DNA of 64,000 nucleotides from Gammaproteobacteria bacterium (GCA_011321815.1 DROS01000026.1:54-64053), one strand, 5' to 3'; numbered from the stretch's first letter, positions 21,678-40,586 are shown. Notes: generated by a model not told the origin, from the sequence alone. Numbers and translations: made by a program.

Positions 21678-22460
21678 TTATTTTAATTCCAGATGCAGCA
21701 TTTTGCCGCCGGTCTCAGCAGCCAGCTTTTGGTAATGCCAGTTGGTTTCCGGGTTGTCGTGACCGATGGGCAGAGTGTAGACCGGGCTGGGGATATGAAA
21801 ATAGTGAATGCGATCTGCGGGCGGTTCGTCGCCGATAAGTAAGTAGGCACCGGGTGCAGGAGCGTGGTCCGCAGCGTAGCGAAAACCATAACCGATGGTC
21901 TCGTTGGCGCCGGTGAAAGGGGCGCCCTCCATAAGTCGATCAAACATTTCACCCATAGTGCCGCGGTAAGTATCAGCCTTGCCGTCGGAGAACCAAGTGA
22001 GTGCGTCAAGTTTTTTGCCCGAGCGAATGACGATGACGCGCAATACTGGTATGAGAAAATCGCTGACCCCGTGCATGGAGCCGGTGGCGTCGATGAGCAG
22101 GTGCAGACTGTTGCCAGGCAGGTCGCGCAGACCTTTGACGAACACGTCGAAGTCTTTGTGGTTCTTGCCTTTGGCCAGCCCAGCGGCGGCCAGCGCTTTT
22201 TCCATTTGTTTTTCTGTAGACAGGCTGGCGAGGGTATTCATATTAGCCAACAGGCGCTTGCGTTCGGCATTAGATTTGTCCAGTTCGATTTGCAGGTTGG
22301 CCAGGGCGCTTTTCAGCCGGGGGGCTTGATATTGCTCCGCCATGCGCGCGGTAATAAGGATGGTGACCAGTAAAAAAATGAAAGTCGCCAACATCAGCAA
22401 GGCAATGTCGGAAAACATTTCGTAGATGTTGGGCGGAGCTGAGCGACGTTTTCTGCGCAT
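21678..22460 (-). CDS. Single-TM protein with ExbD/MotB-like Asp helix, coiled coil and vWA domain
   Basis: EMFSDIALLMLATFIFLL TM segment; MIDAS-like LIDATGSM and LLIGDE; ends LAAETGG. Confidence 0.75.
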   Translation of the reverse strand: MRRKRRSAPPNIYEMFSDIALLMLATFIFLLVTILITARMAEQYQAPRLKSALANLQIELDKSNAERKRLLANMNTLASLSTEKQMEKALAAAGLAKGKNHKDFDVFVKGLRDLPGNSLHLLIDATGSMHGVSDFLIPVLRVIVIRSGKKLDALTWFSDGKADTYRGTMGEMFDRLMEGAPFTGANETIGYGFRYAADHAPAPGAYLLIGDEPPADRIHYFHIPSPVYTLPIGHDNPETNWHYQKLAAETGGKMLHLELK

Positions 22461-22489
22461 ATTTTCTACGAAACAATTAGTATGAATGT

Positions 22490-23467
22490 TTATTTTTTAT
22501 GTTTGTCGCCGAACAGGTAGCCCATTACGCCACGTTCAGCCTGTCTGAGTTTAATTTCCAGCGCCAGGGTTTTTACGTGAGCTTCGCGCAGGCGTACCAT
22601 CTCCCGTAATTGGTCGAGCTCTATGTCCTGGCCGGGTTGTTTTACTTCGGTGGCGAACTCGCGCATTGCCCCCCGGGTATCCGTGAGCAATTTTTGCAGA
22701 TTGGCAATGTTGCGACTCATTATGCTGATTTCAGCATTGATGAGGTGCAGGTCGCGCTCCAATGACGGTTTGAGGTCTGACGAGCAGTAGACTAAACAAG
22801 TGCGTGTCAGGGCATCTTCCAGGCTTTCCACGCCATTTTCATCGATGTGTGCGAAAATGCGCAGCAGTACGCCGCCCAACACGGCCCCTAATAGTGTGGT
22901 GTAAAATGCAGTGCCCATACCGCCCATGGCGCCCCGCAGCCCCGCCAGCAATTGTGCCTGATCCTCGCCCAAAGCGTCCAGAGAACTGGTCAGGCCGGTG
23001 AGGGTTAACGTAAGGCCAGCGACAGTGCCAATCAGGCCCAGGGTGATGAGCAGGTTGCCAATAATTTCCAAGGCGTGGGCAATGCGCTGATAGATGGAAA
23101 ATTCCACATCCACCAAGGCCTCAATATTAAGCTCGCCATTATTGTTGACAATGGTGCGTAACGAGTTGAAAAACTCTGCCACACAACCTTTTTTTTCGGT
23201 TTGTTCAATACCCAGCCAGCCATCACGTTTGGCAACATTTTCCAATTCGTCTACTTTGATGGACTCCAGAGTAAGCAGAATAGTCAGAATAAAGCTGGTG
23301 GTTACTCCTAGCGCAAACAGGCCAATGATGGCCCAGGTGATGCGGCTGGGATCATGTTGTACGAAGGTTAATACCTCCGTATCCTGATACAGCCCCAAGT
23401 AAATGACAATAGCTGCCGCAGCCCACACGACCCACAATACCAGGGCCCGGTATCCTCTCTGTACCAT
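22490..23467 (-). CDS. MotA/TolQ/ExbB proton-channel family protein
   Basis: LLITLGLIGTVAGL and GMGTAFYTTLLG channel helices; C-terminal coiled coil. Confidence 0.85.
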   Translation of the reverse strand: MVQRGYRALVLWVVWAAAAIVIYLGLYQDTEVLTFVQHDPSRITWAIIGLFALGVTTSFILTILLTLESIKVDELENVAKRDGWLGIEQTEKKGCVAEFFNSLRTIVNNNGELNIEALVDVEFSIYQRIAHALEIIGNLLITLGLIGTVAGLTLTLTGLTSSLDALGEDQAQLLAGLRGAMGGMGTAFYTTLLGAVLGGVLLRIFAHIDENGVESLEDALTRTCLVYCSSDLKPSLERDLHLINAEISIMSRNIANLQKLLTDTRGAMREFATEVKQPGQDIELDQLREMVRLREAHVKTLALEIKLRQAERGVMGYLFGDKHKK

Positions 23468-24134: not shown

Positions 24135-24860
24135 ATGCATCTCATAACAAAAGTATCAACAGTCGCGACACTGTTTGCCGCATCTGCGGCGTTTGCCTCT
24201 GTCGGAAGTCAGGGTAATATCGAAAGCGGTAAGAATATTTACATGAATGGCAAGGGTGATGTTCCGGCTTGTAACAGCTGCCATGGCCAGGATGCTATGG
24301 GTGATGATGCCCTGGGCACGCCGCGCCTGGCAGGGCAGGGCTACGTTTTTCTGGTCAAACAGCTGGAAGACTTCGCAACAGACAAGCGCATGGATACCAC
24401 CATGTTTGTCATGAACACCAATGCCAAAGGCCTGAGCGCCCAGGATCGTGCCGATGTATCCGCCTATGCTGCCAGCTTAAGTAAAGAGCTGGTGTCATCG
24501 GATATGGCGCAGGTGAAAGAGTTAGGCAATCCTGTGGGTGTGCGTCACCTGGGCAAGGCTCTCGTTATGTATGGTGCAGCTGATCGTGGTATTGCCTCTT
24601 GCTATTCGTGTCACGGGTTTAATGGCCGCGGTGCAGCGCCAGTTTATCCCATGATCGGTGGTCAAAAATACGTATATCTGGTCAATCAGCTGAAAAAATG
24701 GCGTGATGCCAGTCGCGCCAATGATCCCATGGGTCAGATGCGTGCGATTGCGAAAAACATGACGGATGAGGATATCCATAATGCAGCAACGTATCTGACG
24801 TCGGCTCCTCGTACGACAATGGGCAACTCTCGTGTGCCAGATGACTACCCGCACGACTAA
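24135..24860 (+). CDS. Periplasmic dihaem cytochrome c4 (Cyc1-like)
   Basis: Signal peptide; CNSCH and CYSCH; PRLAGQ and PMIGGQ c4 motifs. Confidence 0.92.
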   Translation: MHLITKVSTVATLFAASAAFASVGSQGNIESGKNIYMNGKGDVPACNSCHGQDAMGDDALGTPRLAGQGYVFLVKQLEDFATDKRMDTTMFVMNTNAKGLSAQDRADVSAYAASLSKELVSSDMAQVKELGNPVGVRHLGKALVMYGAADRGIASCYSCHGFNGRGAAPVYPMIGGQKYVYLVNQLKKWRDASRANDPMGQMRAIAKNMTDEDIHNAATYLTSAPRTTMGNSRVPDDYPHD

Positions 24861-24885
24861 GCTGTTGCGTTGATCCATATGTGCT

Positions 24886-24914
24886 AAAAAGGGCGGATTT
24901 ATTCCGCCCTTTTT
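24886..24914 (+). terminator. Intrinsic terminator after cytochrome c4
   Basis: AAAAAGGGCGGA...TCCGCCCTTTTT. Confidence 0.75.
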
Positions 24915-25131
24915 GTTCTTGTATATTTTTATGACCAATTTTCTTATGGTCTGATTTTTCTGGTAGAATCCCGATGTCCTGGTGGTTGTTACTTGCACCT
25001 TTAGCGTAAGTGGCCGGGGGACGCGTTTTTTGGAGAATGAAGAGCCTCAAAGCTGTCTGAGAGAGAAATTTCGCTTGATCGGGTGGTTTGGAAATTACGT
25101 TGTATTGTTCGGGTGGCGGTAACCATAAAAT

Positions 25132-25776
25132 ATGTCAAAAGAAAAGCAATCACTGAAAAGTGGTGAAAAGATTTTGTTTGGGATTGTGGCTGTGTTTATC
25201 GGTTTGGCTGTTATCGCTTATGCGGCGCTGGAAACCTACCGCATGTCACGTACTGAGCCTTTGTTCGATAACAAAACACACTACAATTTTTCGGAGGCGG
25301 GGCATTTGGGTTCCCGTTTATTCCGTGAAGCACGTTGTACAGCCTGTCATCGTGCATTGCGTAATGGCACCAACATGGGGTTGTCGCTGGACGGTGTTGG
25401 TTCGGTGCGGACACTGGATTGGCTGGTTGCCTTTTTGGCTGATCCGGAGGCGACTTATGGAGCCAAAACGTTTGACCATGGTCCTAAACCTAAAGAAGCT
25501 GCTTATGTTGCGCAGATGCCGGAAAAAGACCGGTATGCCATTGCGGTGTTTATTTCTGAGCTGAAGGCAGAGCAGGGCTCGTCATCAGCAGCAATGCCAC
25601 CGGAAGGGCGTTCAGCTTTTATCGACAACATGGTGGGTGCTTGGGCGCCCGCCGAGTGGAAAGAGCGTTTTCAGGATATTCGAACCAAGCAGGCGCCTCA
25701 AGGAGCCGCCGCTGGGTCAGCGTCTCAGCCGGCGCCGCAAGAGACAAGTTCGCCAGAAGCCAAAGTCCAGGAGTAA
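25132..25776 (+). CDS. Membrane-anchored monohaem cytochrome c
   Basis: N-terminal TM helix, CTACH. Confidence 0.85.
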   Translation: MSKEKQSLKSGEKILFGIVAVFIGLAVIAYAALETYRMSRTEPLFDNKTHYNFSEAGHLGSRLFREARCTACHRALRNGTNMGLSLDGVGSVRTLDWLVAFLADPEATYGAKTFDHGPKPKEAAYVAQMPEKDRYAIAVFISELKAEQGSSSAAMPPEGRSAFIDNMVGAWAPAEWKERFQDIRTKQAPQGAAAGSASQPAPQETSSPEAKVQE

Positions 25777-25781
25777 TTATC

Positions 25782-26318
25782 GTGAGCAGCAGTCATCAGG
25801 AACCGTGGGAGCGGGACACGGAATATACACGTTATACTTTGTGGTTTGTTTACGCATGCATTATTTACAGCCTTATCGGTTTTTCCTGGGGGGCGCTGAT
25901 GGGCGGTATTTCTGAATTTCGTCATTTTGTAGATCATCGTTTGCACGGTGACCTGATTGTGCGTGCGCACACGCACGTCAATTTGCTGGGTTGGGTGGAG
26001 ATGGCGATTTTTGCTGCAGTGTATTACATTATTCCTCGCTTGGTGAAACGTCCCATTTACAGCCTCAGACTGGTGAAGCTACATTTTTGGACGCATAATT
26101 TTGGCCTGATTGGTATGGTGGTATTTTTTACAACGGCGGGTGTGTTGGGTGGTTTGACTGGCGAAACCGGTACGCCCGAGCAGGTTGAGGCCGTGGTAAA
26201 GCCCATCTTGGCCACTATGGGGATTTTTGGCACTATAGTGTTGCTGGCAAATTTTATTTGGGCGTACAACCTGTTCCGCACCTGCGCAGGTTGGGAAAAA
26301 AACAGGACTAAAGCATGA
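25782..26318 (+). CDS. Short 4-TM haem-copper oxidase subunit I homologue
   Basis: RAHTHVNLLGW...YYIIPRLVKRPIYSLRLVKLHFW matches one CcoN repeat; GTG start after GGAG. Confidence 0.8.
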   Translation: MSSSHQEPWERDTEYTRYTLWFVYACIIYSLIGFSWGALMGGISEFRHFVDHRLHGDLIVRAHTHVNLLGWVEMAIFAAVYYIIPRLVKRPIYSLRLVKLHFWTHNFGLIGMVVFFTTAGVLGGLTGETGTPEQVEAVVKPILATMGIFGTIVLLANFIWAYNLFRTCAGWEKNRTKA

Positions 26319-26821
26319 AGATATGGCGGTATTTGAGTGTTTTTTTGATGGTGACGCTTCTGTCTGGCTGTCTTTTGTTTGATGATGGCAGCTACAAGGT
26401 TGGCATGACCGTGCCGAGCTTGCGCACCAAAACATTGGCTGATGTTGGTGGTGACCTGAGCCGTATCACCAGTTATCGTTACCCCGATAAGCGTATGTAC
26501 CAGTATTCGCTTGATGACGCCCTGGCCAAGGGGCAGGTGATGGTGCTGGCTTTTGCCACGCCGGGGCATTGCACACAATGTGACAAGCACCTGCAAATGC
26601 TCAAGGGTATAATGGACAAGTATGAGGATAAAGTGCTGTTTTTGCACATGGATCAATACCAGAACCCTGAGGCCTTTAATGCACTTACGGTGATTGGTGA
26701 TCCGTGGACTTATATTATTGATGGTAAAAACACCATACGTTTGAGGCGTGCCGGGCGCATGCTTTACCGCGAAGTGGATGCTGTGCTTGCCAGTTTGCTA
26801 AAAGAAGAGAAGGCGAGCTAA
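26315..26821 (+). CDS. Thioredoxin-fold lipoprotein
   Basis: LSGC lipobox; FATPGHCTQC CxxC; DPWTYIID cis-Pro region. Confidence 0.75.
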   Translation: MKIWRYLSVFLMVTLLSGCLLFDDGSYKVGMTVPSLRTKTLADVGGDLSRITSYRYPDKRMYQYSLDDALAKGQVMVLAFATPGHCTQCDKHLQMLKGIMDKYEDKVLFLHMDQYQNPEAFNALTVIGDPWTYIIDGKNTIRLRRAGRMLYREVDAVLASLLKEEKAS

Positions 26822-26826
26822 CGGAC

Positions 26827-27279
26827 GTGGCGAAATCTGAGATGTTTGAGTTGTCACAAGACCGTAAAGGTGTGACTTGGGATGTGTTGATGTATGTGCC
26901 CACCGTGGTAGGGTTAGGCATTGGTGCGTTGATGTTTTGGTACGATAAAAACCAAGGGTTGGCTTACCTGTTGTTTTTTCTGGCCTGTTTCTTCCTTTTT
27001 CAAGGGGTGCATCGTATTCTTGGACGTATGCTGGTGCTTCCTCAATCCCCTGTTTCATTGGATGTATCCAGGCAGCGGGTATCACTGGCGTTACGCAATG
27101 GTGAAGTCGTTGAGCTGGTTAAAAACGTACGCTATTTTTCAGATCATGCGGGCAAGTCGTTTGGTCTCACCGGCATGGATATGATGGGCTCCAAACGTCA
27201 GTATGTTTTTCATAAAGGCCAGTTTGCTGATGTCGTTGCTTTTGGCAGGGTGGCGGATGCGCTAAAAGTGTTTGCTTAA
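26827..27279 (+). CDS. Conserved-looking membrane protein (2 TM + soluble domain)
   Basis: Closely coupled to the upstream gene; two hydrophobic helices. Confidence 0.7.
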   Translation: MAKSEMFELSQDRKGVTWDVLMYVPTVVGLGIGALMFWYDKNQGLAYLLFFLACFFLFQGVHRILGRMLVLPQSPVSLDVSRQRVSLALRNGEVVELVKNVRYFSDHAGKSFGLTGMDMMGSKRQYVFHKGQFADVVAFGRVADALKVFA

Positions 27280-27298
27280 CCCGCTCGCGAGGTTTGCG

Positions 27299-27493
27299 TT
27301 AACGTTGTCTGCGCCGCCGGACAATGTCCCACCCCATGAATGTCAGTATGGCCACGCCAATCAGGCAGGCACCTGCGATGATCCATTGTTCGGTTGTTTT
27401 CGAAACCAGTCCTCCAATCAGCATGTGTATGGAATAGCCGAGAATAAAGATAGAGCTGACAGCCACGGAAATGAGGATGATTATTTCTTTCAT
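27299..27493 (-). CDS. Small 2-TM protein
   Basis: Two hydrophobic helices and a basic C-tail WDIVRRRRQR. Confidence 0.65.
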   Translation of the reverse strand: MKEIIILISVAVSSIFILGYSIHMLIGGLVSKTTEQWIIAGACLIGVAILTFMGWDIVRRRRQR

Positions 27494-27883
27494 TTGAGTA
27501 TGGTTTTTTTAGAGCAGATCTGTGTCGAGGCGGGTAGCTTAACAGAAAACACAGGACGCACAGAAACTTAGATTTTCATACCGATTGTCTCGGGTATTCG
27601 TTTGATTTATCTATGAAATTGTCAAAATTTTGTCAGGGGTTAAAAGCCGTTCTGTTTTTCCCTGTGGAGGCTTGACCCTTGCTATGACATGTGACACTCT
27701 CTTTCGTCATGATTCTCCGGGTTATTATGCGGGCGAATGTTAGGGAGGGGGGACTTCCCAAAAAAAATTAGGTCATAGAGCACGGGGTGACATGGACAAA
27801 TGGCAACATTTTATCGTGTCCTGCGGTCTCCGCCAGACCCTAATAAAACAAAATGTAATGTTGGTTATTTCAGGAGGTGAGGG

Positions 27884-28141
27884 ATGAAAAATCCACTAAT
27901 GCTTTCTCTTGTTGGGGGAATGCTAACTGGGATGGGTAACGGCAGTGTGTTTGGTGCCGCGCTCATGTGCTTTCTTGGCCGTGGTCAGTTTAGTGACTGG
28001 GGAGGATGGGGCAGTCAGGCATATGATCCCAGCACTTTCACGGGATTTATTGACTGGGCGATGATTGTATTCGGTATTGCCTTTTTCATTATCCTCAAGG
28101 TTGCGGTTGGCCGCCATTTAGAGATTGAAGCCAAGGCGTAG
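27884..28141 (+). CDS. Small Gly-rich membrane protein, first gene of the oxidase operon
   Basis: AGGAGG RBS; two hydrophobic segments. Confidence 0.75.
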   Translation: MKNPLMLSLVGGMLTGMGNGSVFGAALMCFLGRGQFSDWGGWGSQAYDPSTFTGFIDWAMIVFGIAFFIILKVAVGRHLEIEAKA

Positions 28142-28198
28142 TCAGTCTTGTTTCTATTTTGATAATTCTTGATTTAATAAATTTAGGGAGGAGTTGAC

Positions 28199-28288
28199 AT
28201 GGCTACCTTTGCGGGAATGATGGGGATTTTGTTAGCACTGAGTTTTATGTGGTTCAGCTGGTTTTTGCTGATGCCTCGTAGCAAGTAA
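28199..28288 (+). CDS. Small single-TM protein (29 aa, absent from ORF track)
   Basis: GGAGGAG RBS; MATFAGMMGILLALSFMWFSWFLLMPRSK*; directly before ccoN. Confidence 0.7.
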   Translation: MATFAGMMGILLALSFMWFSWFLLMPRSK

Positions 28289-28323
28289 ATAGTTGATTCA
28301 GAAAATAACCTGGGAGGGTAAAG

Positions 28324-29730
28324 ATGTTTAAATACCTATTTGCGAAAGCGGAAGATATCCCGGCTGGGTCAGCCGCGATTTACTTCGGCTATTCGTCGAT
28401 TATTTGGTTTGTAATTGGAACTGGTTTGGGTTCCTTTAATGCCGCCAAGCTCGCATTTCCGGACTTTGTCACGGGCAGCGAGATTTTGTCGTTTGGGCAT
28501 ATGCGTCAAGTTCACGTTCTGGCTGTTATCCTTGGCTGGATATCCATGGCCTTCGCCATGGCAATGATGTACATCACACCGGCGTTGGGTAACACCAAGC
28601 TCTGGTCTGAGAAGCTGGGCGTCTGGAACTGTTTTATCTGGAATATTGGACTGTCTCTGGGACTGTTCCTGTTATGGCTGGGCGTAAGTTCAGGTCGTGA
28701 ATATTCCGATATGCCGTTTTTCATTGACGTAGTGGTTATTCTGGGTATTTTGACACCACTGTGTGTTAACGTGTTCATGACGATCAAAACTCGTCGTACA
28801 CAGGGTATCTACACCACCAACTGGTTTTTTGGTGCCGCCACTTTCATGGTCATCATCGTGTTTTCTGTGGGCAACTCACCTGAGTTCTTTCAGTTGACAG
28901 GTCTGACTGAGGCATACCTGACATGGTGGTTCGCTCACAATGTGTTAGGTCTGTGGATTACCCCGGTTGCTGCGGCTATTTCGTACTACGTTGTGCCAAA
29001 AGTAACGGGCAATCCATTGTACTCGCACCGTATTGGCCACTTGCACTTCTGGTCGGTTGTGGTGTTTTATTCAACGCCGGCTGCTCATCACCTGATGTCT
29101 GCTCCTCTGCCAGAATGGCTGAAGTCTTTTGCCTCGGTGGAAGGTGTGCTGATTCTGGTGCCAGCCATCGCCTTCGTGTCGAACTTGCTGCTCACTATGA
29201 CAGGCAAGTGGCGCATGTTTGTGGAAAATATTGAGATCAAATTCACCATTACAGGTGTGTTGATGGCGATTCCGCTAAACATGCAGGGTGGTTTCCAGCA
29301 GACTCGTGCAATTAACTGGTACATTCATGGTACTGGCTGGATTGTTGCCCATGCTCATCTGGCGTTGTTGGGCTTTTCCACTTTCCTGGAAGCCGCTGCC
29401 GTATACTATGGCTTGCAGACACTGTTGCGTCGTAAACTGTACTCATTAGGCTTGGCCAACTTCCATTTCTGGATGTTGCTGGTTGGTTTTACCACCTACT
29501 GGGTATCTATGACTATCGCTGGTTTGATTCAGGGCGCAGGTAAAATCTACGAAGTGCCTTACATCGATGTCGTGATTGCTGAACATCCTTACATGATTGC
29601 ACGTTGGGTGGGTGGCACCATGGTGTTCCTCGGAAACTGCGTATGGCTGTACAACATGTATATGACTGCTCGTGTCGGTACTGCGATCCCAGCGGGACGC
29701 CTGCCACATGAACTGGCCTACGAACGTTAA
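28324..29730 (+). CDS. ccoN: cbb3-type (C-family) cytochrome c oxidase subunit I, divergent
   Basis: Six His ligands (RQVH, WWFAHN, AAHH, AHAH); helix-VII cross-link Tyr in HFWSVVVFY; GREY Ca-binding loop. Confidence 0.92.
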   Translation: MFKYLFAKAEDIPAGSAAIYFGYSSIIWFVIGTGLGSFNAAKLAFPDFVTGSEILSFGHMRQVHVLAVILGWISMAFAMAMMYITPALGNTKLWSEKLGVWNCFIWNIGLSLGLFLLWLGVSSGREYSDMPFFIDVVVILGILTPLCVNVFMTIKTRRTQGIYTTNWFFGAATFMVIIVFSVGNSPEFFQLTGLTEAYLTWWFAHNVLGLWITPVAAAISYYVVPKVTGNPLYSHRIGHLHFWSVVVFYSTPAAHHLMSAPLPEWLKSFASVEGVLILVPAIAFVSNLLLTMTGKWRMFVENIEIKFTITGVLMAIPLNMQGGFQQTRAINWYIHGTGWIVAHAHLALLGFSTFLEAAAVYYGLQTLLRRKLYSLGLANFHFWMLLVGFTTYWVSMTIAGLIQGAGKIYEVPYIDVVIAEHPYMIARWVGGTMVFLGNCVWLYNMYMTARVGTAIPAGRLPHELAYER

Positions 29731-29756
29731 TAGAATAATAAGGGGAGGTAATTACC

Positions 29757-30707
29757 GTGGCTTTTAGAGAATATAAAATCGGTTCCCGAATGTTCGGTTT
29801 GGCGTTCGGTACATCGATGTTCATTACTTTGTATATGCCGGCAGTGGATATTCAGAATGTATCCGCAACGTCTATTGCAATGGATCGTCAATTGTCCTTT
29901 GGCCGGGTAGGTGGCTTCAGTTATGAAGACCCTTTCCTGCAAGGGTGGGCAAAACCTATTACGGTGCAGATAAACCAGGACCCGAAGACGGGGGCTACTA
30001 TTGAGTCGACACGTGCTTTTGTGTACGAAAAAGGTGTGCCGTTTCCCAATGGTATTCGTCATCCGCGGATTCTTGGCAAAGTGCCGGCTGCTGCGAGCGA
30101 ATCAAAAGGGCGGATTAATGAGGCATCTGAAGATCAGGGTGCCGTGTTTATCGTCCGGGAAGAAGTTGATGGTGGCGTGATGGTCCCGTACATCGAAAAT
30201 GCGACGGCGACTCGTGGTTGGTTGCCCAGCGCAACGCTGGCAAAGGCAAGTGAGTCACAGCGACTGCATGTGGGTAAAGGCAAAATCATGTTCGTTCGTG
30301 AAGGCTGCTGGTGGTGTCATACCTTACTGCCTGAGCAGACTCAGGATTGGCAGTATTTTGGCGCACCGCCTATGCTGGGCGACTTTAATGGTGAATCACC
30401 AACGGCGTTTGGTTCTGATCGTAAGGCGCCTGACTTGACTCATGTGGGGTCTCGCAACTCTTCACGCGAATGGATGATGATGCACTTTTTTAATCCTCGT
30501 CTGGTTCAGTCGCATTCCATCATGCCTCGTTATGACTATTTGTGGGGTGAAAAGGACGCAAACGGCAATACTATCGACTATGATGGTTGGCGTGCGGCCT
30601 ATACAGCGTATGCTGACGGAAAGTCAATTTATCCACCTGAAGTCCCTGTACCGGCTGCTGATAGTGAAGCCCGTGCATTGATTGACTTCGTTCTGAATCT
30701 GAAATAA
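29757..30707 (+). CDS. ccoO: cbb3-type oxidase subunit II (extended CcoO)
   Basis: N-terminal TM; REGCWWCH, GSDRKAPDL, HFFNPR and SIMP motifs. Confidence 0.88.
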   Translation: MAFREYKIGSRMFGLAFGTSMFITLYMPAVDIQNVSATSIAMDRQLSFGRVGGFSYEDPFLQGWAKPITVQINQDPKTGATIESTRAFVYEKGVPFPNGIRHPRILGKVPAAASESKGRINEASEDQGAVFIVREEVDGGVMVPYIENATATRGWLPSATLAKASESQRLHVGKGKIMFVREGCWWCHTLLPEQTQDWQYFGAPPMLGDFNGESPTAFGSDRKAPDLTHVGSRNSSREWMMMHFFNPRLVQSHSIMPRYDYLWGEKDANGNTIDYDGWRAAYTAYADGKSIYPPEVPVPAADSEARALIDFVLNLK

Positions 30708-30721
30708 AAAGGGGAGTAGAT

Positions 30722-31345
30722 ATGGCTTGGAAATTTGATAACCCACTGCACACCCTGTGTACGGACGATCAGAACGAAGCGGCGAAGGCTGTTTGGGAGG
30801 GTGAGAGCCTGGGTGGTATTACAGAAGATAATAATCGCCTACCGCCTCCCATCATTGGTATCTTGGTGCTGACGATTGTTACCGCGTTTTTGATTACTTT
30901 TCCGTTGTGGGGTCAACGCCCTACTGCGGCGATTTACGAGGAATACATTGCATTAATGGATTCCCCGGCGATTCAGGGTAAAAGTGACGCGGAGGCAATG
31001 GAATACATCGTTAATCAGGTGAAGGCAAGTGGTTCCAAATGGGCACCTTTACAGGAACGTCATCCGCTGGAAATGGACGATTTGCGTCTGATTAAAGATG
31101 CTATCATCGAGTTGCAGCGTAATGGATCGGACTTGCGTGAGTTTACGGTGCTCGGTGATCGTCTTGTGTTGGCGAACTTTGAAGGCAACTTGAAAGCTGA
31201 CGGCACCAAGGAACGCATTCAGCCTTGGTGGGACAAAGGTTATACCATCGATATTTTCTTTATCGTTATTTTCTGTCTTGGCGTGATGATTGTTGTGAAG
31301 CGCTTGCCTGACTACGGTTGGGAACCAAGCCACCACGGCCATTAG
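30722..31345 (+). CDS. CcoP N-terminal-like membrane subunit without haem c motifs
   Basis: GGITEDNNRLP resembles the CcoP DGIEEYDNPLP motif; 2 TM; no CxxCH. Confidence 0.7.
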   Translation: MAWKFDNPLHTLCTDDQNEAAKAVWEGESLGGITEDNNRLPPPIIGILVLTIVTAFLITFPLWGQRPTAAIYEEYIALMDSPAIQGKSDAEAMEYIVNQVKASGSKWAPLQERHPLEMDDLRLIKDAIIELQRNGSDLREFTVLGDRLVLANFEGNLKADGTKERIQPWWDKGYTIDIFFIVIFCLGVMIVVKRLPDYGWEPSHHGH

Positions 31346-31375
31346 ACTAGTAAGAGAGAAAACAGGAGAATTATT

Positions 31376-31507
31376 ATGATTGATTTGGATAATGGCCCAC
31401 TGGCGATGTTGATTTGGATTTTGCTGGTTTATACAGCACCATTCATCTACAGCTTCTATGTTGATAAAACGGATCAGGACAAGCCTGGCATTGGCGACTA
31501 CGGTTGA
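31376..31507 (+). CDS. Small single-TM protein (43 aa, possible CcoQ analogue; absent from ORF track)
   Basis: AGGAG RBS; MIDLDNGPLAMLIWILLVYTAPFIYSFYVDKTDQDKPGIGDYG*; followed by a terminator. Confidence 0.7.
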   Translation: MIDLDNGPLAMLIWILLVYTAPFIYSFYVDKTDQDKPGIGDYG

Positions 31508-31546
31508 TTTAATGCTCGTCTGATCCGTGTTTGGAAGCAGTAAAGC

Positions 31547-31581
31547 AAGGCCACATCCTTAATCCGGGTGTGGCCTTTTTT
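31547..31581 (+). terminator. Terminator of the oxidase structural operon
   Basis: AAGGCCACATCC...GGGTGTGGCCTT followed by a T tract. Confidence 0.75.
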
Positions 31582-31894
31582 ATGAGGCTTTTTAAACAGC
31601 GCGCCTTCGAATGCCTCTAAAAACTTTACGAGAGAGGCGTCACCCTCGCAGTGTCACTGCCCAAGTTTTATTGGCTGTGAAGCGCGCAGCCATGGTAAAG
31701 TGGCTTTTTCATGGTGGCGTTTATCCGTATTTCTTTTGTGTTCCCGATGCAGGTTACTGGTGATGGTTTCTGAGGTGTTACAGCATATTTTTGGCAGTAT
31801 GGTTGCTGCTGCATATTCATTGAATTTTCCGTACCTGAATTTGTCGATAAAGGAAAGTTCCGGCCCGTTTGGAATTGACACCAGCATCGAAGGG

Positions 31895-32104
31895 ATGAAA
31901 TCGCAGGAGTTTAGCGTAGGGATTTTTTATTTTCTGATTGCCTCTATCGTTGTATTTACCGTTTTTGTTTTTATGTTTATGACGAAGGGGAAAACAGAGA
32001 ACCTTAAAAAAGGTGAAAAAATTCTTTTTGTCTGGATTCTGTTGGGCGTTGTGGTCGCAGTAGTGTTCGGTGCGGCACAAATGCTTCATGGGTATTTGTT
32101 TTAG
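31895..32104 (+). CDS. Small 2-TM protein
   Basis: Hydrophobic helices flanking LKKGEKILF; start uncertain. Confidence 0.6.
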   Translation: MKSQEFSVGIFYFLIASIVVFTVFVFMFMTKGKTENLKKGEKILFVWILLGVVVAVVFGAAQMLHGYLF

Positions 32105-32112
32105 GAGGAATA

Positions 32113-32394
32113 GTGATGGCGGATTTTTTTAACTCATTTGAAGATGGCTGGACCATTTATCTTTGGTTGGTTGCGGGTGCGGCGATTGTTTTGACTGCAA
32201 TTTATTGGGTGCGTTGGGCTGCACATAATGATCAGTTTGACGAAGATATAAAATATGTCGTTTTTGATGAAAATGATAAAGATAAAATGGCTCCTGAAGA
32301 GTTTGAAAAAGCGATGAAGGTAAATAAAGCCCAGGAGGAGTTGCGCAAGGAGTATTTGGAAAAAGAGGCCGAGCGCAAACAGCGAACCTCATGA
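32113..32394 (+). CDS. ccoS: CcoS/FixS-like cbb3 maturation protein
   Basis: TM helix followed by WAAHNDQFDED, compare CcoS W-A-x-x-x-G-Q-F-D-D. Confidence 0.7.
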   Translation: MMADFFNSFEDGWTIYLWLVAGAAIVLTAIYWVRWAAHNDQFDEDIKYVVFDENDKDKMAPEEFEKAMKVNKAQEELRKEYLEKEAERKQRTS

Positions 32395-32879
32395 AGAAGG
32401 GTGAAAAGGGCATTTTAATCGGTATAACGGCTTTTGTTTTGGTGGCGATGGCCGTGAAGGGTTGGATGGTTTCGCAGGAAGAAGAAAAAGATCCAGGTAT
32501 CCCGTTTTATAGCACGGCGTCACCGGAGTTTGCAGCCAAGGCGTCGGTACTTTACCGCAAATATAATTGTCGTGATTGTCATGCGTTGTGGGGGCTGCGT
32601 AATATTATGCAGGCGGTTCCTGCACCTCCGTTGGATGGAATGGGCTCATTACGTGATGAAGAATGGTTGTATAACTATTTTTCTGCAGAGGATCCCCAGT
32701 CAATAATCCCGTCGCGACTGAAGCCACGTTTTCGCATGCCGTCGTTTGCCAAGATTCCTGAAGAAGATCGCCGAATGCTTGCCAGCTATATCAGCAGTCT
32801 GAAAGTTGAAGACTGGTATCTGGAAGAGACCAAAAAGACGGCCTATGAAAAACTGACGGGTAAGGAATATCAGCAATGA
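32391..32879 (+). CDS. Membrane-anchored monohaem cytochrome c (CcoO/NorC-like fold)
   Basis: TM helix, CRDCH, APPLDGMGS, RMP axial Met. Confidence 0.85.
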   Translation: MKKGEKGILIGITAFVLVAMAVKGWMVSQEEEKDPGIPFYSTASPEFAAKASVLYRKYNCRDCHALWGLRNIMQAVPAPPLDGMGSLRDEEWLYNYFSAEDPQSIIPSRLKPRFRMPSFAKIPEEDRRMLASYISSLKVEDWYLEETKKTAYEKLTGKEYQQ

Positions 32880-33370
32880 GATTCCGGGTGCGTTGGTTTT
32901 CTTTTTGGGTGGCGATATTTGTCGGTTGTCTGGTGAACTTTTTGGGTGACTGGCTGCTTGGTATTCGCATAGAGTTGTTTTGGGGGTTGGATACGTTTAA
33001 TTTTTTCTGGTTTTTGCAGTTGTTTATTTTGCCGGTATTGGTGGGCATTTCAGTGTCATACATTTACGGGCTGGGTGGTAAGTGGATTGCTATATTTCCA
33101 CCACTTATTGTGCGCTTTGCGGCGTATTATCAAACTGTTGAATACTCTGGTGTACCACGAGGCGCGGAGTTGATGCCGCTGGGTTGGTGGGGGTTTTTCG
33201 TGATTCTGGCGATGGAAGCCTCAATGATTGGTGGTGTGCTCGGTGAAATCATGAACAAACGGGTCTATGGGTGGAAAAAGGCGGTACATGTTTCGGATAA
33301 CGACGTATCGCCTGAGATGTTGTCCGGCCAGGCAAAGTCTGCCGAAAAAGCTGTTACTAAGACTGAGTGA
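32876..33370 (+). CDS. 4-TM membrane protein
   Basis: ATGA overlap with the upstream gene; four hydrophobic helices. Confidence 0.75.
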   Translation: MRFRVRWFSFWVAIFVGCLVNFLGDWLLGIRIELFWGLDTFNFFWFLQLFILPVLVGISVSYIYGLGGKWIAIFPPLIVRFAAYYQTVEYSGVPRGAELMPLGWWGFFVILAMEASMIGGVLGEIMNKRVYGWKKAVHVSDNDVSPEMLSGQAKSAEKAVTKTE

Positions 33371-33379
33371 GGCTTGGGT

Positions 33380-34453
33380 ATGGCACCGCGGTATCAGTCA
33401 AATCTGAGCGCTGATGAGCGTCGTAAGCGTGAGCGTTATCTGGCAGCGACCGTTATTACCTGTATTGCGGCAGCGGTGATATTTGGTGTGATGCATGTGG
33501 TAAAACTGGGCGCGAATCGTATGGCTGACATGAGGGATAGGGCAACTTATGATTTGGCGGATATGAAGGATCATATACGCGCAGCAGGGGAGGATATCAC
33601 CCGGCACCGTGTGCATGAATCACGGAAGAAGGCGAAAAAAGTTTACCAATGGAACGAGCTGGAGGCCCTGTTGACGGCTGAGCAGTGGCAAGAGCTTGCG
33701 ACTATGGTGACTATTCCAGCAGGCGATTTTTTAATGGGCACTGATTCAGAGCGTGCCGATAAGTTTAATCGTCCTCAACATACGGTGTTTTTGCCGGAAT
33801 ATAAAATTGATAAATATCCTGTTACACATGCGCAGTTTGCGCAGTTTGTTGTTGCTACGCAACATCGTCCACCATTGGACTGGGTCGATGGTAGTATCCC
33901 GGATGGAAAAACACAGTACCCTGTTACTATGGTGACGTGGTATGACGCGGTGGATTATTGCAAGTGGAAAGAAAAACGCTTGCCCACTGAGGCAGAATGG
34001 GAGAAAGCTGCACGTGGTACTGATGGCCGCCGTTGGCCTTGGGGTAATCAGATGGACGCAAGCCGCCTGAACACTTATTACCACGTTGGTTCGAGTACCG
34101 AAGTGACGACGTATAAAACCGGGGTGAGCCCATATGGGGTCTATGATATGGCTGGGAATGTCAGCGAATGGACAGCAAGTGACTTTCTTCCCTACGAGGG
34201 GTCGGCGGCTGTTGCAGACACATTCCAGCCAAAAAAGGTGCAGGCGGCGACGCCTGAAGACCGTGCTTTAAAAGTGGCGGACCTTGTCGCTGTAGAGGGT
34301 GTTTATAAAGTGCGTCGCGGTGGTTCGTGGAAAAGTGACCCGTTTTCAACGTCGGTTTATCACCGGAATTTTTCAATGCCTTATTATGCGTCAGATTTTT
34401 TTGGCTTCCGCTGTGCAGTTACGGTAGCAGACATAAACCAGGCAATAAATTAG
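33380..34453 (+). CDS. Membrane-anchored FGE/SUMF1-domain protein
   Basis: IPAGDFLMG, RLPTEAEWEKAARG, DMAGNVSEW, RGGSW, GFRC. Confidence 0.92.
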   Translation: MAPRYQSNLSADERRKRERYLAATVITCIAAAVIFGVMHVVKLGANRMADMRDRATYDLADMKDHIRAAGEDITRHRVHESRKKAKKVYQWNELEALLTAEQWQELATMVTIPAGDFLMGTDSERADKFNRPQHTVFLPEYKIDKYPVTHAQFAQFVVATQHRPPLDWVDGSIPDGKTQYPVTMVTWYDAVDYCKWKEKRLPTEAEWEKAARGTDGRRWPWGNQMDASRLNTYYHVGSSTEVTTYKTGVSPYGVYDMAGNVSEWTASDFLPYEGSAAVADTFQPKKVQAATPEDRALKVADLVAVEGVYKVRRGGSWKSDPFSTSVYHRNFSMPYYASDFFGFRCAVTVADINQAIN

Positions 34454-34466
34454 CGAGAGTCGCGTA

Positions 34467-34691
34467 GTGAGTAAAATATCCCGTTCGTTCGTATTTTTGA
34501 TGCTGCTGGCAACAACATGTTCTGTGTATGCGGTGGATAGTTACCGTTATGCACATGTTACCATTGAAACGCCTTGGGCAATTTTCATTTTTTTGTTGCT
34601 TATTATTCTTTTTCCGTTTGTTCTTATGGCAATACTGTATTGGTATTTTGCGGTTAAAAAATCAGAGATTAAAGATGCAGAACATGAGTAG
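34467..34691 (+). CDS. Small exported or membrane protein
   Basis: Signal-like N-terminus plus one TM; ATGA overlap with the next gene. Confidence 0.65.
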   Translation: MSKISRSFVFLMLLATTCSVYAVDSYRYAHVTIETPWAIFIFLLLIILFPFVLMAILYWYFAVKKSEIKDAEHE

Positions 34692-35046
34692 GGCATTTTT
34701 TTGTTTATGCACATGGTTGATGTTGAGTGTGGCTGCGCCAGGTTATGCGGATGGCTCTGTGGAAGAGAAAACGGAGCAGCAAAGCGCGGGAGTGATACAG
34801 GCCTTCACGAATGACAGATCAGCAAAGAGCGAGCTGGTTGCCATTGATGAGAAAACCAAATATCTGGTTATGTTTTTGATGGGTGTTCCTCTGTTGTTGC
34901 TCATTATTACTACAGTGGCGCTTGGTGTTGCCATGGTTGTATATGGCAAGCGCGTGTTTGTTGCCCACATGGTGTGTGCTGGGCTGAGTTTGACGTTGGC
35001 GCTAGGGCATGCTGTGGTGGGTATTGTCTGGTTTTATCCTTTTTAG
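34684..35046 (+). CDS. Membrane protein with signal peptide and two His-bearing TM helices
   Basis: FVAHMV...LGHAVVGIVWFYPF; possible haem b ligands. Confidence 0.7.
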   Translation: MSRAFFCLCTWLMLSVAAPGYADGSVEEKTEQQSAGVIQAFTNDRSAKSELVAIDEKTKYLVMFLMGVPLLLLIITTVALGVAMVVYGKRVFVAHMVCAGLSLTLALGHAVVGIVWFYPF

Positions 35047-35185
35047 CTGGTCCACTGACCTTGGGGCTCTCGAATAAATCAAGGGCGATCTGAGCAGTTG
35101 TTGTCATAAAAAATTGAGCTGGGCGATTACTTAAACGAGTGTGGGCAGGGTTGTCAAATGATTGTTAACGCCTCTTAGACATTCA

Positions 35186-37807
35186 ATGCAAAATATTCCT
35201 GCATTACGAAGGCTTGGTCTGTTTCTTGTTTGTTTATATCTGATCTCCGGTGCCGCCAGTCTCTCCTACGAAATTCTCTGGACGCGCATGTTGTCCTTGC
35301 AATTTGGGGTCAGCATCTTTGGTGTGGTTGTTACGGTAACTGCCTATATGGCGGGCTTGGGTGCGGGCAGTTTTTTAGGTGTGCACTGGAGTCGTTTGAC
35401 GGGCCGCCCTTTGCGCCTGTTTGCTTGTATTGAATTATTTGTTGCTGCTACAGCCGTATTGCTTCCCACATTGTTCCAAATGGTAGATACACAGTTTGCC
35501 GTTATCGCGGGCAGTATCAGTTATTCCGGTTGGATTGCGTTGCAAATTTTTATTGTTACGCTGGTGTTGATGATTCCTGCCATGGCTATGGGTGCCGGCT
35601 TCCCGTTAATTTTATCCGCAGTACAAGGTGCAAAAGTTTCTCTGGGTAGTATCTATGGGATCAATGCCCTTGGGGGGGCTTTGGGGGCATTATTACCGCT
35701 ATGGTTGTTGCCTATGTTGGGCTGGCTGTCATCACTGAGGGCTGTCGCATTAATCAGTTTTGTGGTTGCGGCGGTTTTGTTTTTATTGTCCTGGCGGTTT
35801 GAGTCGGTGCAGAAAAAAGAAAAGGTGGAGCCTCTGGTTCGCCCCCCCACAAAATGGCTGCTGATTTATGCGGGGATAGGAGCTGGTGCGCTTTTGCTGG
35901 AAATTGGTTGGGCGCGTTTATTCGGTATGGTGATGTTGCGTACTGAGTATGTGTTGGCGATTATTTTGGCCGTATTTTTGCTGGGTATTGGTTTTGGCAG
36001 CCTGTTGGCTCGATTACTGGTGAGCAAACGTTGGTTCAGCGTCTTGCCGGTTGTGGCTTGTGGATTTGCTTTATTGAGTTTGTGGTGGTTGCCGACACTT
36101 TCAGCCTGGATTGAACAGGCGCATTTTTCTTCTTTGTTTGCCGCATTATGGTTACAGGGCTCGGCAATCATTATGTTGACCTTGCCAGTGACGTTGGTGC
36201 TGGGCGCCTGGCTGCCGTTGCTGGCAGAGCGCGTGGGTAACCGTTATCAAAGCGGAATGTGGTTGTATGGGGCTAATTCACTCGGGGCTGCATTAGGCAC
36301 GCTGTTGGCCGGTTTTGTTTTTATTCCGAGCATTGGCAGTAGCAGCACGGTTGCTCTGGGAGCGATGTTGTTATTGATTTTAGGGCTGGTATTGGCACAG
36401 GGATGGGCTTCCCGGCCTGCCTGGGCCTTGGTCATTGTGATGGGGTTGCTGAGTATGACGGTGGCGGATATGCCGCCGGTATCCCGTTTATTGCCGCAGG
36501 CTTATGCACAGGCAAAAACGCTTTCCCTGCACGAAGATGCTATTTCTATCACCCATGTTGTTGCAGGCCCGGATGGCCAGCGACAGTTATTGGCCGACAT
36601 GCGGCGCATGGATGCCTCGTCGGAGCCCACTGCTGTAGAGGCGCAAAAAAATCAGGCACGATTACCGTTGTTGTTGCATGCTGAGCCACAGCGGGTTTTG
36701 TTTTTGGGTTTAGGGACGGGGATTTCTGCGTCAGCGTCTTTGGCATTTCCCGGGTTGCAGCGCACTGCCGTTGAATTATCACTGGGCGCAATTAACGCCG
36801 CACAAAAGGAGTTCCGGCCAGTCAATGGCAGCATTACCGATTATTTAAAAATTGTGCGTGATGATGCCCGCCACTTTTTATTGAGCGATTCTGAACATTA
36901 TGACGTGATTGTTGGCGATCTGTTTCACCCTGATCTGGTGGGGCGTAGCGCGTTGTTGTCCCGTCAACAATTCATTCGTGCACAAAAACGCTTGTCACCC
37001 GGTGGTGTTTTTGTGCAGTGGCTGGCGCTGAATCAATTTGATATCAATAGTCTGCAAGTGGTTTTGGCGACCTTCAAAGACGTATTTCCGGACGCTGTTA
37101 TTTTTGTGGATGCTTTTCGGTTGGCGATGGTCGGTGTACGTGATGGCAGTATTGGTAGTGTGCAGTTATTGGGTAATGTACAGCGGCTAACGGATGGACA
37201 GGCCGAGTTGGCAACGGGAGGGGAGGGGGCGTGGACATGGCTGGGACGTTATTGGGGGGGGATTCCTGAATTTGATGTACCGCGACAGGATGAGTGGGCT
37301 CCAGTGATTGAATATCAACTGCCAGAGGCTCGCTACGATGGCCAACTGGATATTTCCAAGATATTGTCATGGTTATTATCTATTCGTTCTCCGTTGGGTG
37401 CGGCAGCCAGTTATCTTGGTGTCAGTGAGAATAATTTCCCTCAATTTGAGCGCGCATATATTGCCACGGAATTAGGGCATCGCAGTTGGTTGGCTTTGTT
37501 GTATGGGAAGGCTGCGGAAGGCCAACGGTTGCTACCGCTAGCTTATCAAGCCAACCCAAAAGACCGCTGGGTAGGTTTTGCATTGGCGGATGCGGTTTTG
37601 CAGGATCGTGCTGCGGCAGAGGCGCGCGGGCTGAATGAACGGCAGTTGTTGGAATCGGTGCTGCGTATACGGCCGGATCATGCAGAGGCATTGCGTCGCC
37701 TGTGGGAGCTGGCGGAATTGGCGGGGAACCGTGAGCAGGCCGCCGTTTACCGGCAGCGTTTCGCGGCGTTGAACCCACTGGATTCTGCGGTGCAAAAAAC
37801 TCAGTAA
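35186..37807 (+). CDS. Multi-TM / spermidine-synthase-like SAM-binding fusion protein
   Basis: SGAASLSYEILWTR repeats, FLGLGTG, DDARHFL, YDVIVGD; TPR-like C-terminus. Confidence 0.88.
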   Translation: MQNIPALRRLGLFLVCLYLISGAASLSYEILWTRMLSLQFGVSIFGVVVTVTAYMAGLGAGSFLGVHWSRLTGRPLRLFACIELFVAATAVLLPTLFQMVDTQFAVIAGSISYSGWIALQIFIVTLVLMIPAMAMGAGFPLILSAVQGAKVSLGSIYGINALGGALGALLPLWLLPMLGWLSSLRAVALISFVVAAVLFLLSWRFESVQKKEKVEPLVRPPTKWLLIYAGIGAGALLLEIGWARLFGMVMLRTEYVLAIILAVFLLGIGFGSLLARLLVSKRWFSVLPVVACGFALLSLWWLPTLSAWIEQAHFSSLFAALWLQGSAIIMLTLPVTLVLGAWLPLLAERVGNRYQSGMWLYGANSLGAALGTLLAGFVFIPSIGSSSTVALGAMLLLILGLVLAQGWASRPAWALVIVMGLLSMTVADMPPVSRLLPQAYAQAKTLSLHEDAISITHVVAGPDGQRQLLADMRRMDASSEPTAVEAQKNQARLPLLLHAEPQRVLFLGLGTGISASASLAFPGLQRTAVELSLGAINAAQKEFRPVNGSITDYLKIVRDDARHFLLSDSEHYDVIVGDLFHPDLVGRSALLSRQQFIRAQKRLSPGGVFVQWLALNQFDINSLQVVLATFKDVFPDAVIFVDAFRLAMVGVRDGSIGSVQLLGNVQRLTDGQAELATGGEGAWTWLGRYWGGIPEFDVPRQDEWAPVIEYQLPEARYDGQLDISKILSWLLSIRSPLGAAASYLGVSENNFPQFERAYIATELGHRSWLALLYGKAAEGQRLLPLAYQANPKDRWVGFALADAVLQDRAAAEARGLNERQLLESVLRIRPDHAEALRRLWELAELAGNREQAAVYRQRFAALNPLDSAVQKTQ

Positions 37808-37881
37808 TTTAATCGGCTATATCATCTGTTTTGAAGGGCGTGCGCAATGAATAAACAGGTTTACAGTGGTAGTATGTGGCT

Positions 37882-39210: not shown

Positions 39211-39256
39211 TATACCCGGAAATGCTGTATTTATGTATTAAACTGTGGACCTGCCA

Positions 39257-39757
39257 ATGAATAAAACTGAAGATACACCCAAAGTCGAAGATGAGGAAAA
39301 AGATCCTCCACCTCCCGGTAATCTTAAAGATACCCAATGGGGTGAATTGCCAGCCGATAATTTTGGTTATGCCTCCGATGAAGAACGCCGGGCCAAACGG
39401 GGTCTGGAAGACTGGGAGTTGGTGGAAAAAATTCCCGAGTCACAACAGCCTGTGCCACGCTGGTTTATTGGTATTATTGTTGCCGTGATGTTAGTGGCAG
39501 TAGGGCTCAGCTTTCCTTTTTGGGGGGACCGTCCCGGTTATGAACGTGAGTGGATTAATTGGGGGTTTGGTGCGGCGCTGTTGTACACTGCCGTGTTTGG
39601 TACTTTCGTTTATTTTATGGTGAATTTTTACGGCTCCAAAGTGGCGGGGCGTTTGGATACGGACAAAGAAAAAAATGCAGAGTCACCCACAGACAGTAAA
39701 GAAGCCAGCAGCAAAAAAAATGCAGCACACCCGACGTCCAAATCTACAGACAAATAG
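39257..39757 (+). CDS. Second haem-less CcoP N-terminal-like membrane protein
   Basis: IPESQQPVPRWF-TM-FPFWGDRP parallels the 30722 ORF (ITEDNNRLPPPI-TM-FPLWGQRP). Confidence 0.65.
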   Translation: MNKTEDTPKVEDEEKDPPPPGNLKDTQWGELPADNFGYASDEERRAKRGLEDWELVEKIPESQQPVPRWFIGIIVAVMLVAVGLSFPFWGDRPGYEREWINWGFGAALLYTAVFGTFVYFMVNFYGSKVAGRLDTDKEKNAESPTDSKEASSKKNAAHPTSKSTDK

Positions 39758-40043
39758 CTGTTTCGGTTTAATGGCGCTGTTGTTGTCGGCCTGTGATATC
39801 CCCAACGAGCCATTGGTGTACCCTGATGCTGATTCGTCAGCAGCGCAGCTTTATCAGGCGAAATGCGCCAGATGTCATAATGCGCCGCAGCCTCATGCGC
39901 ATACTGCACAGGCATGGCCTGCTATTTTGCAGCGCATGCAGATGCGCATGAAAACAAAAGGGGCGACACCGTTGAATAAAAATGAATTAAGCGAAGTGCT
40001 GGATTATCTTCAGCGACATGCCGCACCGGTAGAGTTGAAATGA
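39720..40043 (+). CDS. Monohaem cytochrome c lipoprotein
   Basis: LSAC lipobox, CARCH, WPAILQRM; start uncertain (39720 or 39771). Confidence 0.8.
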   Translation: MQHTRRPNLQTNSCFGLMALLLSACDIPNEPLVYPDADSSAAQLYQAKCARCHNAPQPHAHTAQAWPAILQRMQMRMKTKGATPLNKNELSEVLDYLQRHAAPVELK

Positions 40044-40474: not shown

Positions 40475-40586
40475 TCATTTTAACTATGAAACAAACCCAC
40501 AGCAGGCTGGCGGACGATTAACACCGTAATGTCCCCAGCGGAAGGTGTCGGAGTGTTGTGGGTGTGCTGTGCGCCGGTGATTTGAT

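Follow-up and report, generated by a model that had tools for sequence, protein, structure and literature searches.

INTRODUCTION

Ion motors with a 5:2 subunit stoichiometry are known from flagella, from gliding or secretion, from import at the outer membrane or its upkeep, and from phage defence. A further class was predicted in silico in 2025, in which tolQ-like genes lie next to 'TPH-vWA' proteins whose Asp-bearing helix inserts in the pentamer; these systems mostly encode heterologous pairs of von Willebrand factor A (vWA) proteins, their function is unknown, and it was proposed that they exert force at the outer membrane (PMC12204202). [quoted passage not shown] Here we describe a stretch of 64,000 nucleotides from a Gammaproteobacteria bacterium (GCA_011321815.1, DROS01000026.1:54-64053; hereafter the window) that carries, beside a divergent cbb3 oxidase cluster, a gene for a MotA/TolQ/ExbB-type channel subunit (gene A) and one for a partner with a membrane helix and a vWA head (gene B). 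This architecture has already been predicted in print (PMC12204202) and is compared by description with that prediction, which includes an Idiomarina-seeded family; what is new here is the genome-level association of the pair with the divergent cbb3 cluster. A literature search that included locus tags and accessions, and covered few subscription journals, found no paper linking the pair to the oxidase.

RESULTS

Anatomy of the gene pair

Both open reading frames lie on the minus strand, gene A at 22490-23467 (325 aa) and gene B at 21678-22460 (260 aa), with 29 bases between them. The pair is flanked by rpsT on one side and, on the other, by the dihaem cytochrome gene that opens the plus-strand cbb3 cluster, which confirms the divergent arrangement described in an initial annotation of this DNA. 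That annotation had also noted the lack of a TonB or TolA gene nearby. In the window, the genes flanking the pair include no TonB, TolA, ExbD or OmpA gene, and none occurs among 50 recurring neighbour families scanned with Pfam through representatives, these being drawn mostly from the 108 families that occur in at least three loci.

The product of gene A exceeds the cut-off of Pfam MotA_ExbB (PF01618; 30.6 bits against 22.9) and its model (mean predicted local distance difference test score 77) matches ExbB best (Z 13.2, root-mean-square deviation (rmsd) 3.6, 202 residues aligned), then TolQ (Z 12.9, rmsd 3.2, 197 aligned), with ZorA and MotA next; the top Foldseek rows are ExbB, ZorA, PomA, MotA and TolQ. 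Z values of this size are possible for helical bundles, yet the MotA/TolQ/ExbB family tops both fold searches. Four membrane helices are predicted from hydropathy peaks at residues 8-26, 47-65, about 135-157 and about 187-205. Thr148 in helix 3 (23024..23026, minus strand) and Thr190-Thr191 in helix 4 (22895..22900, minus strand) are each present in 81/81 distinct homologues and are likely to line the pore, as the presumed equivalents of the ExbB/MotA threonine ring. Beyond the channel fold lies a helical C-terminal tail of about 80 residues (236-311; 22535..22762, minus strand), predicted to form a cytoplasmic coiled coil, with model helices at 236-276 and 284-311 and weak matches to generic coiled coils only.

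The B protein has a basic N-terminus followed by a single hydrophobic helix with its peak at residues 19-37. Asp18, found in 91/91 distinct homologues, stands at the start of this putative trans-pore helix (22350..22409, minus strand), whose matches to MotB_plug are weak (14/36 members, best E 0.0014, none shown above cut-off). In the model a long helix extends to residue 78 after the membrane helix, and the C-terminal head (residues about 115-260; 21681..22118, minus strand) takes a vWA fold: all 50 rows shown of a fold search span about residues 110-260 (best Z 13.5, rmsd 2.7, 144 aligned). A Foldseek search likewise matches vWA chains, with E values between 1e-6 and 2e-4, among them the vWA domain of NorD at E 1.1e-5. 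The MIDAS-type residues D124-x-T126-x-S128, T188 and D211 fit the DxSxS-T-D pattern; D124, S128, E187, D211 and E212 are kept in 91/91 distinct homologues, T126 in 90/91 and T188 in 86/91. The Pfam VWA family gives no match in the window's B protein, and for 36 members it is missing from the families listed (25 of 58), so the vWA assignment rests on fold and motif. The ESM Atlas offers leads only, with two unnamed clusters at 0.98 and others, of vWA type, at 0.83 to 0.88. The initial annotation had proposed a motor whose partner bears a coiled coil and a vWA domain in place of an OmpA or ExbD domain, an anatomy borne out by the fold of A, the Asp-bearing helix of B and the vWA fold at its C-terminus; it had further made the proposal depend on conservation of the Asp and MIDAS residues, and their presence in 91/91 and 86-91/91 homologues respectively excludes the contrary case.

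By homology to ExbBD, TolQR and MotAB, A and B are predicted, with good probability, to form an A5B2 complex whose ring is turned against the axle by proton flow at Asp18. Given the basic N-terminus, the single helix and the positive-inside rule, the B heads are predicted to be periplasmic, and the stalk of about 40 residues in the model looks too short to reach the outer membrane.

Comparison with described motors and vWA systems

The pair resembles the ExbB-ExbD and TolQ-TolR motors in the fold of A, the pore threonines and the Asp-bearing partner helix, and differs from them in that the partner ends in a vWA domain, has no ExbD/TolR domain and no TonB/TolA neighbour, and in that A has an additional N-terminal helix and a C-terminal tail. 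With MotAB and ZorAB it shares a four-helix A, a weak MotB_plug resemblance of the B helix and a cytoplasmic tail as in ZorA; in contrast, it lacks a wall-binding domain of the OmpA type, its surroundings show no flagellar genes and, in the Pfam scan of recurring neighbours, no zorC/D/E genes, and the tail reaches only about 80 residues. It could be argued that the pair is a Zorya-like anti-phage module, given that ZorA is among the fold matches of A and that A also weakly matches ZorA models (best PADLOC E 1.2e-6; NCBIfam far under cut-off). This is very improbable for two reasons: first, B has no PADLOC match at E≤1 and its C-terminal domain is a vWA domain, not the OmpA-like domain of ZorB. 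Second, the pair is near-universal in its carrier lineages (25/32 and 28/29 genomes), mostly single-copy and set between respiratory or housekeeping genes.

There is a close likeness to the TPH-vWA systems, with a tolQ-like gene beside a membrane-anchored vWA gene, no tolR or exbD, an Asp in the helix, a threonine ring, and no SHLS motif in the B helix, which holds no His. The two differ in that a single B gene is found here, whereas the heterologous vWA pair predominates, without being universal, in the published systems; in that B belongs to a tight sequence family that stands apart; and in that the present pair is linked to a respiratory cluster, a context absent from section 8 of that paper (PMC12204202). 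The likeness to NorQ/NorD lies in a motor and a MIDAS-bearing vWA domain encoded with an enzyme of the heme-copper superfamily, and the initial annotation had drawn this analogy. It is a loose one: NorQ/NorD is a precedent for a vWA adaptor that couples a motor to a heme-copper enzyme, yet NorQD is ATP-driven, works on the cytoplasmic side and is indispensable for enzyme activity (PMC9976466), whereas the present pair is predicted to be ion-driven with a probably periplasmic head and is missing from some carriers of the oxidase. No AAA+ gene adjoins the pair; a MoxR family occurs in just three loci, where it lies about 8 kb away from B or belongs to a genome that has no pair.

B has 674 homologues (E≤0.001, 90% clustering) but only 26 representatives at 50% identity (E 0.001), which suggests a tight, isolated sequence family. 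Its loci, sampled as the 80 best of 156 in GTDB, come from marine Gammaproteobacteria, Ca. Tenderia and Zetaproteobacteria; members on record are Tel_14115 of Ca. Tenderia electrophaga and EAU55029.1 and EAU55121.1 of the cultured Mariprofundus ferrooxydans. A adjoins B in 76/80 loci; in each of the other four a contig ends within 330 bases of B. Each locus has a single B-family gene, a test that a strongly diverged second vWA gene would escape, and the pair is single-copy in most carriers. Some Zetaproteobacteria hold at least two copies, one after a globin-reductase block and one after a ccoG copy, and in one zetaproteobacterial subgroup the B stalk is lengthened by an insertion of 16 residues (loci with these features are L089:11042-12978, L092:9312-11248, L101, L102 and L104). 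Scanning metagenomes with P0126, a distant homologue, returned no loci.

Co-occurrence with a divergent cbb3 oxidase cluster

The cluster (24138..41662, genes on both strands) comprises genes for a dihaem cytochrome c, two monohaem cytochromes, two truncated CcoN-like proteins, a thioredoxin-like protein, ccoN, a long ccoO, a haem-less CcoP-like protein, and CcoS-like, FGE-sulfatase, MFS/spermidine-synthase fusion, CcoG-like and small membrane proteins. Its gene order is that of a 26-gene region of Ca. Tenderia electrophaga, the cbb3-1/cbb3-2 region of Tenderiales; the pair lies outside the 26 genes listed there, and the main text of that work contains no mention of MotA, ExbB, TolQ, a motor or the accessions of the pair (10.1101/2022.05.06.490989). 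The ccoN gene (28324..29730, plus strand) was used as the co-occurrence marker. It retains the six His ligands and Tyr249 (H64, H205, H255, H256, H343, H345 and Y249 in 70/70 rows, aligned to 3MK7), and its clade is easily scored because members are 75-99% identical to the window ccoN, against about 30% for canonical CcoN.

Among 400 Gammaproteobacteria at least 90% complete (one further genome could not be scored for B), 26 carry both pair and ccoN clade, four the pair only, five the clade only and 365 neither, so that the clade is present in 26/30 pair-carriers against 5/370 others; genomes with both fall in 11 families. The corresponding counts for 112 Zetaproteobacteria are 49, 9, 10 and 44 (49/58 against 10/54), for 32 genomes of the window's own family, the single family of its order, 24, 1, 2 and 5, and for 29 genomes of a second order 23, 5, 0 and 1. 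Where assemblies are fragmented, partial matches to B are included in these genome-content counts. When genomes were chosen because ccoN was missing from the flank of the pair (50 of 64 such loci), 41/50 had the clade elsewhere, and of 12 pair-only genomes that were re-tested, nine have the clade ccoO or the cluster MFS/spermidine-synthase gene, three of the five ccoO matches beginning at a contig end. The pair thus nearly always implies the cluster, and the dependence is one-way. The initial annotation had tied the pair to the oxidase, and this profiling reveals no independent distribution in either class.

Physical linkage is seen at both ends of the cluster. The cluster is visible in the flank of only 27 of the 80 best loci, 20 times at the dihaem-cytochrome end and seven times at the ccoG/spermidine-synthase end, and the pair abuts it, at either end and in six families, in 11/23 class-sample genomes examined, a further one of the 23 having the pair beside the GT-C-like gene only (see below). 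Four Zetaproteobacteria have B on the contig and strand of ccoN, 19-30 kb downstream of it, usually after rrf2, globin and 2Fe-2S flavoreductase genes, and in others a ccoG copy precedes A. Three relatives of genus g2 (G051, G053 and G056; 90, 98 and 93% complete) are without the ccoN clade, the pair and the GT-C-like gene. On this distribution it is probable, though by no means assured, that the pair serves the system to which the oxidase cluster belongs.

Expression in Ca. Tenderia

In Ca. Tenderia electrophaga Tel_14115 is the orthologue of B, and Tel_14120 was taken as A by place, strand and length. Their log2 length-adjusted expression is 8.3 and 8.6, respectively, compared with 13.25 for ccoN, 12.9 for ccoO and 8.2 for the spermidine-synthase fusion, the accessory genes standing at 8.2 and 8.3 (PMC5371394, supplement 3). 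The pair is therefore transcribed about 25-30 times below ccoN, which is among the most highly expressed genes of this organism (PMC5371394), and like the accessory genes; such a housekeeping level is not that of a structural subunit and is compatible with a catalytic helper. The pair does not respond to electrode potential (logarithmic fold changes 0.08 and -0.05, false discovery rate above 0.9; supplement 3). An invariant transcript level would also suit a sensor or gated ion leak, in which the vWA domain binds a fixed partner while the ring and tail of A report or relieve energisation from the very highly expressed oxidase, and the cytoplasmic helical tail, which extends beyond the ExbB fold like that of ZorA, could be read in the same way. 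However, this tail is the least conserved portion of A, the MIDAS and the threonine ring are kept as in working motors, and the pair is not consistently accompanied by a gene for a regulator or effector, which together make a sensor or leak decidedly unlikely. An FNR-box search found 40 matches against 36 expected, with none in the divergent intergenic region, and a promoter scan (5 matches against 3.3 expected) was uninformative.

Evidence against the association and a possible role in electron uptake

A number of observations weigh against a role of the pair in the service of the oxidase. Three genomes of family f68, 98-100% complete, hold the whole cluster in order, and neither A nor B was found in them; nine pair-less Zetaproteobacteria with ccoN form one ccoN clade with 100% support and, because they do so, count as one event; and two genomes with a sister ccoN (58-60% identity) are also without B. 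The pair is accordingly accessory and not needed by every member of the oxidase clade. The strict form of the initial proposal, a cofactor-insertion machine, is contradicted by the f68 genomes and the zetaproteobacterial clade, since these keep the oxidase without the pair, which therefore cannot be an obligatory inserter. Conversely, B is present in G055 (100% complete), G396 (at locus L150) and G202, in which no ccoN clade or MFS/spermidine-synthase gene was found; in G055, where B lies on contig C214, the dihaem cytochrome is kept at a contig end together with the GT-C-like gene. In 11/23 genomes examined no cluster gene lies within 5-7.5 kb around the pair, and in Ca. Tenderia the two are about 3 Mb apart by coordinates. 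Furthermore, related genomes are not independent, so that a Fisher test overstates the association, and kinship is still in the counts given above. In expression, too, TolQ (8.4), ExbB (8.2 and 8.5) and gyrA (8.6) equal the pair, as would fit any housekeeping motor (PMC5371394).

Tree comparison over 52 genomes gave 20 supported splits shared between A and B with one conflict, against 14 shared splits and 8-9 conflicts between A or B and ccoN. Distances of A and B correlate with those of ccoN at 0.83 and 0.84 overall and at 0.58-0.76 within classes, which would fit long shared descent and not one inseparable unit. No column of CcoN tracks the pair except two Lys/Arg swaps, and this points away from CcoN itself as the target. 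Recent co-transfer between the classes was considered separately and is unsupported, as the identities of B (45-53%) and A (38-43%) do not exceed the background, for which 70 other genes give a median of 45%.

The remaining difficulty is that the beta-barrel gene uetC, used as a control (uet names follow 10.1101/2022.05.06.490989), tracks the pair equally well in Gammaproteobacteria. It is present in 39/400 genomes of that class sample, among them 27/30 pair-carriers; pair, ccoN and uetC occur together in 24 genomes, pair with ccoN in two, pair with uetC in three and the pair alone in one, while ccoN is alone in five, uetC is alone in 12 and ccoN with uetC never occurs without the pair. All 24 genomes with both the ccoN clade and uetC thus carry the pair, and all five ccoN-only genomes are without uetC. 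This raises the possibility that the pair is a motor for extracellular electron uptake or surface life, for example by positioning or servicing outer-membrane conduits or adhesins, and that the oxidase link arises via shared lineages. Eddie et al. likewise note that the distribution of the cluster resembles that of uetA-J and may reflect relatedness (10.1101/2022.05.06.490989), and the force proposed for TPH-vWA systems would be at the outer membrane (PMC12204202). In Gammaproteobacteria the two explanations are hard to separate. Nevertheless, the 12 uetC-only genomes have neither pair nor ccoN clade, the three g2 relatives keep uetC without the pair, the pair sits at the oxidase cluster with no uet gene among its recurring neighbours, and the stalk, as modelled, seems too short to span the periplasm. 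In 5/5 pair-positive Zetaproteobacteria uetC was not found by the same search, which there had no positive control; neither was it found in five pair-less Zetaproteobacteria, so that the two groups are not separated by it. Given that the g2 relatives and the uetC-blank, pair-positive Zetaproteobacteria favour the oxidase link, a motor for electron uptake appears somewhat unlikely.

The genome to which the window belongs (G000) has uet and cytochrome loci at C46:57699-70542, C19:4224-8162, C56:13385-14662 and C88:4852-6510, including a uet cluster with an 11-haem cytochrome and two giant cytochromes with 21 and 29 CxxCH motifs. Two of its proteins carry an N-terminal motif that we take to be Cyc2-like.

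Neighbouring genes and the divergent oxidase

A 490-aa GT-C-like membrane protein (L001:1980-3458; G000:C2:38778-40253) has no Pfam match over cut-off and one weak Alg9-like match. Its gene opens the cluster in some families; in f1, f114 and f62 it directly follows B or precedes A, reading in the same direction as the pair. It is lost with the pair in g2, and G055 has both the pair and the GT-C-like gene without ccoN; in Zetaproteobacteria, moreover, an rrf2-globin-reductase block often precedes A. The motor might then work with an accessory module, most plausibly the GT-C-like protein or else the zetaproteobacterial block of globin and flavo-ferredoxin reductase. This is unlikely, given that the GT-C-like gene is retained in f68 and in pair-less Zetaproteobacteria and lies on another contig in the window's genome, that its glycosyltransferase label comes from one weak Pfam match among eight members scanned (E 0.0027), and that in several Zetaproteobacteria the pair is likewise accompanied by ccoG.

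A lipoprotein-like gene of 150 aa, which matches DUF3887/DUF4019 weakly, stands tail to tail with B in many Gammaproteobacteria (L046:6572-7021 and 13 further loci), comes after B in L104 and is the first gene of the cluster in some Zetaproteobacteria (loci of this gene include L152, L177, L178, L191 and L195); its product is a candidate partner of the vWA head. In three pair-less Zetaproteobacteria a MoxR-DUF58-BatA-BatB-BatD operon is found at the cluster end (L118:11549-18680, L098-L099 and L144:7435-14400), between the GT-C-like gene and the globin block and near the position of the pair in relatives. That this MoxR-vWA operon is an exclusive replacement of the pair is ruled out, as the window's genome carries both.

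With the window ccoN as query, the only full-length heme-copper oxidase subunit found in this genome (99% complete) is the window's own; the query found no canonical ccoN or coxA, and there is no FixH match. The divergent oxidase may consequently be its only heme-copper oxygen reductase. As regards the idea that the pair replaces a copper ATPase, two P1B ATPases exceed the cut-off elsewhere in the genome. Relative to Pseudomonas stutzeri, Glu323 is replaced by Gln321 and Tyr317 by Ala315 in 68/68 rows of the CcoN clade, and Ser240 by Gly or Ala; as these positions bear on the tuning of haem b3 and on the lining of the proton channel, the proton pumping or redox tuning of the divergent oxidase may differ. 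Two short, cluster-conserved genes, at 25773-26318 (plus strand) and 41096-41662 (minus strand), match the C-terminal part of CcoN only (Pfam COX1) and are possible assembly placeholders.

DISCUSSION

It is tentatively suggested, as a reading that may well prove wrong in its particulars, that the pair is a dispensable, substoichiometric, proton-driven helper in the assembly or repair of the oxidase complex, whose vWA heads pull on a periplasmic domain. Five A subunits would ring two B helices, and proton flow through Asp18 would rotate the A ring against the B dimer, with the vWA heads held in the periplasm near the inner membrane on their short stalk. A metal ion bound at the MIDAS could grip an acidic residue on the periplasmic part of a cluster protein, for which the long CcoO, a cytochrome with a membrane anchor and the small lipoprotein-like protein often encoded facing B are candidates, and rotation would then pull on the gripped domain, for example releasing an assembly intermediate or reactivating a stalled complex. 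In its more specific form, the pair would be a periplasmic counterpart, driven by the proton-motive force, of the AAA+/vWA activases NorQD and CbbQO, with a 5:2 rotary motor instead of an ATPase, a MIDAS that grips a subunit of the oxidase dominant in iron- and electrode-oxidising bacteria, and assembly or reactivation powered by the very gradient that the oxidase makes; this is possible but doubtful.

The vWA-headed motors have so far been a predicted class without a function (PMC12204202), and the association with the oxidase gives them a first candidate job in a testable context. If the suggested role is true, force-dependent protein remodelling would be powered in the periplasm, where ATP is absent, and the pair would be a new part of the still unsolved chain by which marine iron oxidisers and electroautotrophs respire.

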